Part shown: one piece after another, positions 22,293 through 30,764 of the stretch
Numbering within the stretch: the stretch's first letter is position 1
How the letters are laid out: each line of letters begins with the position of its first letter
NCBI RefSeq assembly: GCF_000026545.1
Contig: NC_011601.1
Strand: one strand, 5' to 3'
From: Escherichia coli O127:H6 str. E2348/69
GTDB taxonomy: Bacteria > Pseudomonadota > Gammaproteobacteria > Enterobacterales > Enterobacteriaceae
Length of the DNA stretch: 64,000 nucleotides
Program-made: the position numbers and the translations under genes
The notes under the pieces: model-generated
The model's input: the letters and a program-made list of their open reading frames with translations, nothing else
What the model was told of the DNA's origin: nothing
Database searches by the model: none

Positions 22293-22952
22293 TCATTTCA
22301 CAATAGTTTTGACACCGTCAGGTGTGCCAATCAGCGCAACGTCCGCGCCACGGTTAGCAAACAAACCAACAGTCACCACGCCAGGAATCGCATTTATGGC
22401 GTTTTCCATCGCTATCGGGTCAAGGATTTCCATGCCGTGGACGTCGAGGATCACGTTGCCGTTATCGGTCACTACGCCCTGACGGTATTCCGGACGACCG
22501 CCCAGTTTCACCAGCTGGCGCGCCACTGCACTACGTGCCATCGGGATAACTTCTACTGGCAGCGGGAATTTGCCCAGAATATCAACCTGCTTGGAAGCGT
22601 CTGCAATACAGATAAATTTTTCCGCAACCGAAGCAATGATTTTTTCACGGGTCAGCGCCGCGCCGCCGCCTTTGATCATTTGCATGTGGCCGTTGATTTC
22701 ATCTGCGCCATCAACGTAGATGCCAAGGCTGTCGACTTCGTTGAGATCAAAAACGTGAATGCCGAGGCTTTTCAGTTTTTCAGTGGAAGCATCTGAACTG
22801 GAAACGGCCCCTTCAATCTGGCCTTTCATTGTACCGAGTGCGTCAATAAAGTGTGCGGCGGTGGAACCTGTACCTACACCAACAATGGTGCCGGGCTGAA
22901 CATACTGAAGTGCCGCCCATCCTACTGCTTTTTTCAATTCATCCTGCGTCAT
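22293..22952 (-). CDS. rpiA: ribose-5-phosphate isomerase A
   Basis: Track ORF extended; Met at 22952 (MTQDELKK) gives 219 aa; RpiA motifs (GVGTGST). Confidence 0.92.
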
Positions 22953-22987
22953 GATCGTTTCGCCTGTGGTATGAAATTTCACACGCA

Positions 22988-23265
22988 TTATACTCTAAAT
23001 AATTCGAGTTGCAGGAAGGCGACAAGAGAGTGACAAATTCGTCAGGAACGAATTTGCCCAGCCGCAGGCTGGCCTTCGGTGAGAGACATGGATGTCTCTC
23101 ATTAATCCCCAGGAGCTTACAGAAGTAAGTGACTGGGGTGAGCGACAAATCCGCATGGAGCGGATTTGAACGCTGCTTGCAGCGGCCCCGTAAGGGGTGA
23201 GGCCCATGGATGGGCCGAATAACCCGCAGACGCAGCACATGCAACTTGAAGTATGACGAGTATAT
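22988..23265. repeat. ERIC (IRU) element, expanded form with two internal hairpin insertions
   Basis: Core matches the inverted copy at 30578-30702 (…AAGTAAGTGACTGGGGTGAGCGA…, terminal TATACTC/GAGTATA); two extra blocks at about 23033-23102 and 23145-23223. Confidence 0.8.
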
Positions 23266-23279
23266 ACAAAAAAAGCGAT

Positions 23280-23558
23280 TCAGACCCCGTTGGCAAGCCG
23301 GGTGGTTAACTCATCCATAAAATATCGCGCAATGGCGGGCATCCCCTTTCGCCCCGCAAATAAAGCATACAACGGTCTGGGGATGCTGCTCCACGGTGCG
23401 AACAGGCGCACCAGTTCCCCGTTAGCAAGCCCCTGTTTACAGGCAAACTGAGGCAATAACGCCACACCATTCAACACAACCAGGGCGCGAACTCGCTGAG
23501 CGAAATGCATTAGCGCAAATCCCTGATCTTTTAAGCTGCGCGTTAACCACTGATACAA
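23280..23558 (-). pseudogene. yqfE: LysR-family regulator fragment (C-terminal effector domain only)
   Basis: 92-aa ORF matching only the C-terminal part of LysR-type regulators; no N-terminal HTH region. Confidence 0.6.
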
Positions 23559-23650
23559 ATGTTACCCGCCAACGACTTCGGTATATGCAACCCGACACAA
23601 AATTGTGTCATAGTGCAGGAAAAAGCATTTACCAGGAGCAGACAACAGCA

Positions 23651-24544
23651 ATGAAACGCCCGGACTACAGAACATTACAGGCACTGGATGCGGTGATACG
23701 TGAACGAGGATTTGAGCGCGCGGCACAAAAGCTGTGCATTACACAATCAGCCGTCTCACAGCGCATTAAGCAACTGGAAAATATGTTCGGGCAGCCGCTG
23801 TTAGTGCGTACCGTACCGCCGCGCCCGACGGAACAAGGGCAAAAACTGTTGGCGCTACTACGCCAGGTGGAGCTGCTGGAAGAAGAGTGGCTGGGCGATG
23901 AACAAACCGGTTCGACTCCGCTGCTGCTTTCACTGGCGGTCAACGCCGACAGTCTGGCGACGTGGTTGCTTCCGGCGCTGGCTCCTGTGTTGGCTGATTC
24001 GCCTATCCGCCTCAACTTGCAGGTAGAAGATGAAACCCGCACTCAGGAACGTCTGCGCCGCGGCGAAGTGGTCGGCGCGGTGAGTATTCAACATCAGGCG
24101 CTGCCGAGTTGTCTTGTCGATAAGCTCGGTGCGCTCGACTATCTGTTCGTCAGCTCAAAACCGTTTGCCGAAAAATATTTCCCTAACGGCGTAACGCGTT
24201 CGGCATTATTGAAAGCACCTGTGGTCGCCTTTGACCATCTTGACGATATGCACCAAGCCTTTTTGCAGCAAAACTTCGATCTGCCCCCAGGCAGCGTACC
24301 GTGCCATATCGTTAATTCTTCAGAAGCGTTCGTACAACTTGCTCGCCAGGGCACCACCTGCTGTATGATCCCGCACCTGCAAATCGAGAAAGAACTGGCC
24401 AGCGGTGAACTGATTGACTTAACGCCGGGGCTATTTCAACGCCGGATGCTCTACTGGCATCGCTTTGCTCCTGAAAGCCGCATGATGCGTAAAGTCACTG
24501 ATGCGTTGCTCGATTATGGCCACAAAGTCCTTCGTCAGGATTAA
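23651..24544 (+). CDS. argP: LysR-type transcriptional regulator ArgP (IciA)
   Basis: Met at 23651 ([15 protein letters not shown]) gives 297 aa; N-terminal HTH; divergent from the yqfE fragment. Confidence 0.92.
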
Positions 24545-24747: not shown

Positions 24748-25830
24748 ATGTCTAACGTGCAGGAGTGGCAACAGCTTGCCAACAAGGAATTGAGCCGTCG
24801 GGAGAAAACTGTCGACTCGCTGGTTCAGCAAACCGCGGAAGGGATCGCCATCAAGCCGCTGTATACCGAAGCCGATCTCGATAATCTGGAGGTGACAGGT
24901 ACCCTTCCTGGTTTGCCCCCCTACGTTCGTGGCCCGCGTGCTACTATGTATACCGCCCAACCGTGGACCATCCGTCAGTATGCTGGTTTTTCCACAGCAA
25001 ATGAGTCCAACGCTTTTTATCGCCGTAACCTGGCCGCCGGGCAAAAAGGTCTTTCCGTTGCGTTTGGCCTTGCCACCCACCGTGGCTACGACTCCGATAA
25101 CCCACGCGTGGCGGGCGACGTCGGCAAAGCGGGCGTCGCTATCGACACCGTGGAAGATATGAAAGTTCTGTTCGACCAGATCCCGCTGGATAAAATGTCG
25201 GTTTCGATGACCATGAATGGCGCAGTACTACCAGTACTGGCGTTTTATATCGTCGCCGCAGAAGAGCAAGGTGTTACACCCGATAAACTGACCGGCACCA
25301 TTCAAAACGATATCCTCAAAGAGTATCTTTGCCGCAACACCTATATTTACCCGCCAAAACCGTCAATGCGTATTATCGCAGACATCATCGCCTGGTGTTC
25401 CGGCAACATGCCGCGATTTAATACCATCAGTATCAGCGGTTACCATATGGGTGAAGCGGGTGCCAACTGCGTGCAGCAGGTAGCATTTACGCTCGCCGAT
25501 GGGATTGAGTACATCAAAGCAGCAATCTCCGCCGGGCTGAAAATTGATGACTTCGCCCCTCGCCTGTCGTTTTTCTTTGGCATTGGCATGGATCTGTTTA
25601 TGAACGTCGCCATGTTGCGTGCGGCACGTTATTTATGGAGCGAAGCGGTCAGTGGATTGGGCGCACAGGATCCGTATAACAACGTTATCCGCACCACCAT
25701 TGATCATTGTGCACATCCCATGTATCGGGATTATCTGCATCGCTATCTGGAAAATGCGCCTGGCGGACATATTCACCACGATCTTCAGCAATATGCTGAA
25801 GCATCGTGGCGGTATAACGATGATTTCTGA
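24748..25830 (+). pseudogene. scpA: methylmalonyl-CoA mutase (Sbm/ScpA), N-terminal fragment only
   Basis: N-terminal ~325 aa match mutase sequence (…[31 protein letters not shown]); the frame then departs from mutase sequence near 25702 and stops at 25830; the C-terminal B12-binding domain is absent. Confidence 0.75.
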
Positions 25831-26656
25831 TTGAATAAAGATATTCCTGCATATACATCGGCCTGTGCGGCGCATCAAAATATTTCAGCGTTGCCGGATT
25901 CACCAGTCGCCAGGCAAAATGCGGGATCACCGTCAGAAAATGTCCGCGCTCCACGGCGCTGATTTTGGCCATAAAACTGTAGGGACGATAAATAATGGTG
26001 GGATTGATCCCACAAGGTCGCATATTCGCATCAATCATTGCTTCGAAGTTGGCCCGGTTCTGAAAGCGCATTTGTAGCCAGGGTAGCTCCTGAAGCAACT
26101 CTTGCTCTTGTCGCTCTTCATAACGACGAGAAACGAGAAAGCCCAATCGCAGCGGCGGTAGTTCACTGATAGTCAGGTTTTCCAGTTCCTGAACTCGTGC
26201 AGATACATGCTGTGGGGAGATAATAAAATCTAACTGACGGTCAAAAAGATTATCGATAACGCCATTTGCGCTGAACTCAACTGGCTGGGCGGTCACGCCT
26301 TCGTACTTATCTCCGAGACTAATCAACTGATCAAAAATAATGGTCGGATAAGTATTATCTATGCCTATCACAATGTCTCGTGAACGACGTCCTGAGTTAT
26401 GGATTTCATTATCAATCGCAGAAAGTCGTTGATAAACCGGGAACAGTTTTTGATACAGTTCCTGTCCGGCTTTATTGAGGCTGATATTATTATCTTTGCG
26501 GGTAAATAGCGTATAGCCAATTTGTTCTTCCAGCGCGGCAATGCTTTTGCCAAATCGCGAAGCCGTCATATGGATTTTTTCTGCCGCCCGGGCAATATTA
26601 TTGGTTTGCGCTAATAAAATGAAATTGCGCATCTTTTTCGAAATAAAAATGTCCAT
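25685..26656 (-). CDS. ygfI: LysR-family transcriptional regulator (YgfI-like)
   Basis: 323-aa ORF with N-terminal HTH ([21 protein letters not shown]); its 3' end overlaps the truncated sbm ORF by 146 bp; start could be the second Met at 26632. Confidence 0.75.
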
Positions 26657-30577: not shown

Positions 30578-30702
30578 TATACTCGTCATACTTCAAGTTG
30601 CATGTGCTGCGTCTGCGTTCGCTCACCCCAGTCACTTACTTATGTAAGCTCATGGGATTCACTCTCTTGTCGCCTTCCTGCAACTCGAATTATTTAGAGT
30701 AT
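30578..30702. repeat. ERIC (IRU) element, canonical ~125 bp form
   Basis: Imperfect palindrome with core CCCCAGTCACTTACTTATGTAAGCTCATGGGATTCACTCTCTTGTCGCC; inverted relative to the copy at 22988-23265; lies 27 bp upstream of the fbaA start. Confidence 0.8.
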
Positions 30703-30764
30703 GAAAAAGTGCGTGCTTTAAAAGCGCGCTGCAACAAGGGCAGGTTTCCCTGCCCTGTGATTTT

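Follow-up and report, generated by a model that had tools for sequence, protein, structure and literature searches.

The short reading frame that lies between rpiA and argP in Escherichia coli O127:H6 str. E2348/69 is best explained as a dead gene fragment, the E2348/69 allele of the E. coli pseudogene yqfE, and we assign this reading a probability of about 0.93. We are equally confident that the stub is the inert debris of one complex deletion. The feature is ordinary and matters little in itself: yqfE is already known as an annotated pseudogene of K-12. What is added here is the parent locus itself, the precise position of the junctions, the chimeric composition of the open reading frame (ORF), the population frequencies of the alleles and the exclusion of a neighboring ERIC element as the cause of the damage.

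The frame occupies positions 23280..23558 on the minus strand of the window (the whole stretch of 64,000 nucleotides that was analyzed, from contig NC_011601.1). The ORF listing of the window gives it 92 codons and a TTG start, and 92 nt separate this start from argP. The latter gene (23651..24544, plus strand) is intact, with both HTH_1 and LysR_substrate domains in Pfam, and is transcribed divergently from the stub, as the preliminary description of this DNA had stated; rpiA (22293..22952, minus strand), also intact, follows downstream on the same strand as the stub. Inside the ORF, RefSeq places a coding sequence of 76 aa (WP_000545310.1; 23280..23510, minus strand, ATG at 23510), whose product is named 'LysR substrate-binding domain-containing protein'. 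Its K-12 counterpart, 231 nt long, is annotated as the pseudogene yqfE (b2915), and the cluster that contains the 76-codon sequence has 528 distinct members. Flanking genes (rpiA and argP), strand and junctions are the same at both loci, which can be aligned end to end. The label 'yqfE-like' given previously can thus be made firmer: this is an allele of b2915, identified by position, strand and sequence. The upstream boundary of the frame is not conserved among alleles, because a 1-bp indel near 23548 places a stop codon just upstream of 'RSLKDQ' in K-12, CUVET19 and 1EC213.

Pfam aligns residues 31-88 of the 92-aa ORF with positions 151-208 of the 209 in LysR_substrate, with a score of 29.3 bits for a cutoff of 28 (E 7e-7). 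Taken alone, this score is marginal. At the level of sequence comparison, the LysR homology is settled by tblastn with the intact ortholog: residues 229-298 of the query match positions 23492-23283 (E 8e-43), and over residues 236-298 of this 298-aa LysR protein 62 of 63 residues are identical, with a nucleotide identity of 96%. Whereas the parent protein covers LysR_substrate positions 2-208 at 116 bits, the ORF retains positions 151-208 only. Pfam detects no HTH_1 domain in the ORF and its match is confined to the end of the effector domain, which agrees with the initial view of a LysR remnant devoid of its DNA-binding domain. A search for out-of-frame remnants of the HTH had also been suggested. 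It found none: when the full-length ortholog was compared by tblastn with positions 22950-23700, residues 1-228 gave nothing better than E 1.7, and no trace of the HTH appeared in any frame of that interval. Neither is there an intact 5' extension encoding an HTH in frame, a stop codon being present directly upstream of the TTG. Lacking the HTH and the linker helix, and with 63 of about 210 effector-domain residues left, a product of the stub would not bind DNA. The 63 retained residues form a non-contiguous part of the LTTR regulatory fold, and it is unlikely that they would fold on their own.

The origin of the fragment is revealed by a blastn alignment of the window with the corresponding locus of strain GN04592 (L002), which served as the reference for the scar. 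This strain was found through a sample spread over the E. coli matches; its rpiA-argP distance is 3.4 kb versus 0.43 kb. Reading from rpiA towards argP, the 5' end of rpiA and its upstream sequence (window 22900-22992) correspond to L002 3951-4043 at 100% identity. Window positions 23261-23472 then correspond to L002 4040-4251 at 96% identity. This block contains a spacer past the LysR stop codon (23261..23279), collinear with the intact loci, and the LysR-derived part proper (23280..23472, minus strand), that is, the stop and the codons for residues 236-298 of 298, as delimited by blastn, tblastn and Pfam. Immediately beyond lies a 62-bp piece of the 3' end of an azoreductase gene (23473..23534, plus strand), equivalent to L002 5598-5659 with 89-91% identity in blastn; tblastn locates azoreductase residues 182-202 of 209 at 23474-23536 (E 8e-10). 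Being on the plus strand, this piece is read antisense by the yqfE ORF. It is followed by a junction filler of 55 bp (23535..23589) that matches nothing in the intact loci and marks the deletion allele, and finally by the region upstream of argP (23590..23650, plus strand), which is collinear from L002 7359 onwards at 97-99% identity. Collinearity before argP thus resumes 10 bp past the stop codon of a lost ferric-reductase-like gene.

The deletion junctions accordingly fall at 23472/23473 and at 23534-23590, on the argP-proximal side of the stub. Relative to GN04592, the first missing stretch amounts to 1,346 bp and comprises LysR codons 1-235 and azoreductase codons 1-181 together with the divergent promoter region between them. 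The second amounts to 1,699 bp and comprises the azoreductase tail together with the BhsA-like and NOX-like genes, in place of which stands the 55-bp filler. As collinear pieces of two separate genes can come only from the long form, the direction of change is a deletion. This makes the ORF a chimera: the filler supplies codons 1-8 and the antisense azoreductase codons 9-28, codon 29 spans the junction and codons 30-92 encode LysR residues 236-298, so that, given the filler and the antisense azoreductase, the first 29 codons of the ORF are not LysR; the onset of the LysR part at codon 30 agrees with a Pfam match starting at residue 31. A lenient tblastn search of positions 22950-23700 (word size 2, E up to 50), using the intact LysR and the other lost proteins as queries, returned only the LysR and azoreductase tails as significant. 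Compared with eight intact loci on both strands, the filler (23535-23589) gave local alignment scores that did not exceed those of shuffled controls. A 63-bp query across it (23530-23592) matches exactly once per genome in 5,176 of the 5,426 E. coli genomes, at this locus only, and in most genomes the filler is 90-95% identical to the E2348/69 version.

In its intact form, the interval has the order rpiA <- LysR (298 aa) / azoreductase -> BhsA/YdgH-like -> ferric-reductase/NOX-like -> argP. The LysR protein of GN04592 (WP_000568123.1) is 298 aa long and carries an HTH_1 domain (71 bits) and a full LysR_substrate domain (116 bits) in Pfam. Next to it, the divergent gene encodes an FMN-dependent NADH-azoreductase (Flavodoxin_2), and the locus further encodes a YdgH/BhsA-like periplasmic protein. 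The last gene of the unit (L002 6024-7349) encodes a 441-aa protein with Ferric_reduct, FAD_binding_8 and NAD_binding_1 domains in Pfam, and equivalent genes are present in loci L003-L005 and L014. The order of these domains is that of NADPH oxidases, a NOX-like architecture. An 'EcNOX' that may correspond to this gene was previously cloned from E. coli KTE10 (UniProt L2VL28; Hajjar et al. 2017, PMC5676040). From the usual arrangement of LTTR genes, the ancestral LysR was probably the regulator of this divergent three-gene unit. The intact parent is a separate, uncharacterized LTTR that does not reach the cutoff of any NCBIfam equivalog model: its highest score is with PRK14997 (172 bits for a cutoff of 380), and the next models are YafC and AaeR. 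The closest solved relatives are PDB entries 3t1b and 3szp (E 1e-34), which are structures of AphB of Vibrio cholerae.

We found the intact locus at the same site in GN04592, TUM13936, AHM21C2872I, IMT16316 and VCSW7. Overall, the intact segment is detected in 249 of 5,426 complete E. coli genomes, 233 of which retain 80% or more of its length. Identical synteny (serA-rpiA-LysR-...-argP) also occurs in Escherichia whittamii, Escherichia sp. E1V33, Escherichia sp. MOD1-EC7003 and a Pseudocitrobacter MAG, the LysR protein of the latter being 72% identical. A scan with exact peptide words did not find the locus in E. albertii, E. fergusonii or Salmonella, although with this method such misses are no sign of absence. 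E. whittamii and E1V33 (L006, L007) have the ferric-reductase gene in fragments, MOD1-EC7003 (L009) has a frameshifted LysR gene and a deletion running from the BhsA-like gene into the ferric-reductase gene, and in several E. coli the ferric-reductase gene is interrupted by IS1. Judging from such lesions, the rpiA-argP module is decaying independently in several lineages.

Based on these comparisons, we propose the following history. The ancestral Escherichia arrangement would be the long rpiA-argP form, with LysR and the three-gene unit. A complex deletion of about 3.0 kb net would have occurred once in an E. coli ancestor, affecting two stretches in either one event or two. An ORF has persisted simply because the LysR tail, by chance, runs open into antisense azoreductase and filler. 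As for the ERIC element, it is a separate and rare insertion on the rpiA side of the stub. Both junctions and the filler are common to all five remnant alleles compared (E2348/69, K-12, 104, CUVET19-1396 and 1EC213). Furthermore, genomes with the filler marker (5,176) and genomes with the intact segment (249) add up to 5,425 of 5,426, indicating that the two states partition the species, with about 95.4% of genomes deleted and about 4.6% intact.

The stub has continued to erode after the main event. An alignment of alleles identifies a secondary, in-frame deletion of 45 bp (23405..23449), equivalent to 15 LysR codons, in strains 104, CUVET19 and AST215. The segment is present in 3,806 of 5,426 genomes and absent from about 1,620 (about 30%). 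The CUVET19 stub has, in addition, a nonsense codon in frame. PGAP calls vary from one genome to another, the locus being annotated as a LysR substrate-binding domain, as a 'hypothetical protein' of 61 aa or with no CDS at all. Nei-Gojobori counts between the E2348 and K-12 stubs give eight synonymous differences and one nonsynonymous difference, and comparisons between the four intact E. coli alleles give two to nine synonymous changes and no nonsynonymous one; with five stubs and five intact alleles counted, the sample is too small for a formal test. Within the 63 LysR codons, every amino-acid change is private to a stub: 1EC213 has N->T, P->L and Y->H, and E2348 and strain 104 have one change each, G->S and P->S respectively. 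The nucleotide sequence of the K-12 stub is the same as that of the intact AHM21C2872I allele, and the CUVET19 stub likewise matches the GN04592 allele. We considered purifying selection on the stub as the reason for its low pairwise pN/pS and rejected it, since the synonymous variants are those segregating among intact alleles. The low pN/pS can instead be explained if recombination with intact alleles imported variation already filtered by selection, which is what we infer from these shared variants. The ERIC insertion is itself found on intact, 76-codon and 45-bp-deleted backgrounds. Together, the shared polymorphisms and the backgrounds of the ERIC insertion suggest that recombination has often taken place within this short interval. 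The stub also appears dispensable, as the genes eliminated from DGF-298, a genome-reduced strain that is viable, include yqfE (PMC10652928). Our search of literature naming yqfE found no functional study, and matches to 'b2915' were unrelated strain numbers and citations.

The expanded ERIC element said to adjoin the ORF is real. It is a long-form copy of 268 bp (22993..23260), inserted at a run of TATATA, 41 bp before the ATG of rpiA, and ending 15-19 bp from the stop codon of the ORF. Its 25-nt terminal inverted repeats are 80% complementary, and it shares its core with a short canonical copy found elsewhere in the window (about 30578-30715, minus strand). A query across the element has a median of six matches per E. 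coli genome. Terminal inverted repeats, a conserved core and multiple copies per genome place it in the ERIC/IRU family, and the element contains the sequence of the ERIC2 PCR primer. Relative to the short element, it has two internal inserts (about 23033-23103 and 23145-23220), which bring its length to 268 bp versus about 127 bp. Near-identical long copies (276-278 bp, 98.6-98.9% identity) occur at other loci of other strains, so that the expansion is a variant of the family rather than a peculiarity of this locus.

The element does not, however, mark the deletion, as had been suggested. It is present at this site in only six or seven of 5,426 genomes (E2348/69, two other O127:H6 genomes, VCSW5, VCSW7 and AST215) versus 5,176 genomes for the deletion, and is therefore absent from the site in more than 99% of deletion-carrying genomes. 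In VCSW7, the same ERIC is found at the same site beside an intact 298-aa LysR gene (WP_000568125.1) and the azoreductase and BhsA-like genes, the third gene of the unit being a shorter CDS (1,104 nt) of the ferredoxin-reductase family; in VCSW5, too, it lies beside intact LysR and operon. The 3' end of the stub and the spacer towards rpiA are collinear with the intact loci. Located beyond this intact 3' end and away from both junctions, which are on the argP side, the ERIC is unrelated to the deletion. The insertion nevertheless alters the surroundings of rpiA: it regenerates a perfect TATAAT (22992->22987, minus strand) and swaps all sequence upstream of it for ERIC sequence. As a result, either the -35 region of rpiA would differ in E2348/69 or its leader would contain the 268-nt ERIC.

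Three other readings of the stub deserve discussion, of which the most plausible, though we still think it doubtful, is compatible with pseudogene status: the stub may be kept for its DNA, the rpiA promoter or upstream elements being located within the old 3' end of LysR. The distance from the LysR/yqfE stop to the rpiA ATG is 55 bp in all alleles lacking the ERIC, and the perfect TATAAT is found only 35 nt upstream of the rpiA ATG, close enough to the stub that any -35 or upstream element would reach to it or into it. Moreover, the primary deletion and the 45-bp deletion both leave the rpiA-proximal 125 bp of the stub untouched. Yet in E2348/69 and five or six other genomes the 268-bp ERIC separates the stub from the TATAAT with no apparent harm, and consensus scans for promoters and terminators, applied to the intergenic regions of E2348/69 and K-12, identified no sigma-70-like site in either. 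A much less probable hypothesis is that of a functional small protein, whether an orphan fragment of an effector domain or a newborn chimeric peptide. The 76-codon frame starts with ATG, stays open in many strains, is called as a CDS by PGAP and has its 528 cluster members, and pairwise pN/pS is low between some remnant alleles. But variants shared with intact alleles account for this low ratio, 15 of the codons are missing from about 30% of genomes, some alleles have a stop, and the start of the frame shifts with the indel; in addition, the retained 63 residues reach just 29 bits on Pfam and K-12 curators list yqfE as a pseudogene. We would grant only a slim chance to the broader proposition that the chimeric frame (eight filler, 21 antisense-azoreductase and 63 LysR codons) yields a peptide that has acquired some function, or else that the stub carries control elements of rpiA. 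Should either be true, yqfE would be more than inert debris.

The preliminary description had favored yet another origin, a decayed duplicate of a neighboring LysR gene such as argP, with the ERIC marking the loss of the 5' part. The stub does adjoin both argP and the ERIC, but there is next to no room for this hypothesis in view of the sequences: the stub is the 3' end of a separate ancestral LysR gene, of which intact copies survive at this position in 249 of 5,426 genomes and in sister species. The intact ortholog is an old syntenic gene in several Escherichia species and is far from ArgP. As for the ERIC, it is 3' of the intact stop codon, at the opposite end from the junctions, and it coexists with the intact LysR gene in VCSW7. 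A direct comparison also led us to reject argP as a paralog: the intact LysR and ArgP proteins share 28% identity over 36 residues (E 0.003), and the former scores 56 bits on the NCBIfam ArgP model (cutoff 297) versus 172 bits on PRK14997. We thus retain the reading of yqfE as a deletion remnant.

A few practical points emerge. In thousands of genomes, the N-terminal third of the protein called by PGAP consists of antisense azoreductase and filler, and a pseudogene label would be better. The rpiA-argP interval provides a clean presence/absence polymorphism for a redox module that is linked to LysR and has a NOX-like flavocytochrome among its products; this polymorphism may interest researchers working on bacterial NOX homologues. 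More generally, an ERIC found beside a gene fragment should not be assumed to have caused the damage. The neighborhood shows other losses. At window positions 24748-26656, E2348/69 lacks most of the scpA-argK-scpB-scpC (sbm) operon carried by K-12; the loss, of about 4.3 kb, begins inside scpA and stops close to the end of scpC. The LysR gene srsR/ygfI (25685-26656, minus strand) has lost its true C-terminus there and is a pseudogene according to PGAP, making it a second damaged LysR gene 2 kb from yqfE.

Comparison with known systems places the stub as follows. K-12 yqfE and the E2348/69 allele have in common their position between rpiA and argP, strand, two junctions, filler and a 231-nt frame from ATG to stop. 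They differ by the 1-bp indel near 23548, which opens the E2348/69 frame up to the TTG (92 versus 76 codons), by one private Gly->Ser change and eight synonymous differences, and by the 268-bp ERIC inserted 15-19 bp past the yqfE stop, which K-12 lacks. That element resembles other members of the ERIC/IRU family in its terminal inverted repeats and core, but is here the long form with two inserts. ArgP (IciA) and the parent of the stub both belong to the LysR family; their similarity is at family level only and ArgP is not the source of the stub. The true counterpart is the intact LysR gene (WP_000568123.1 in GN04592, WP_000568125.1 in VCSW7), which shares its stop codon and downstream spacer with the stub. 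Compared with it, the stub has lost residues 1-235 and, along with them, all three presumed target genes.
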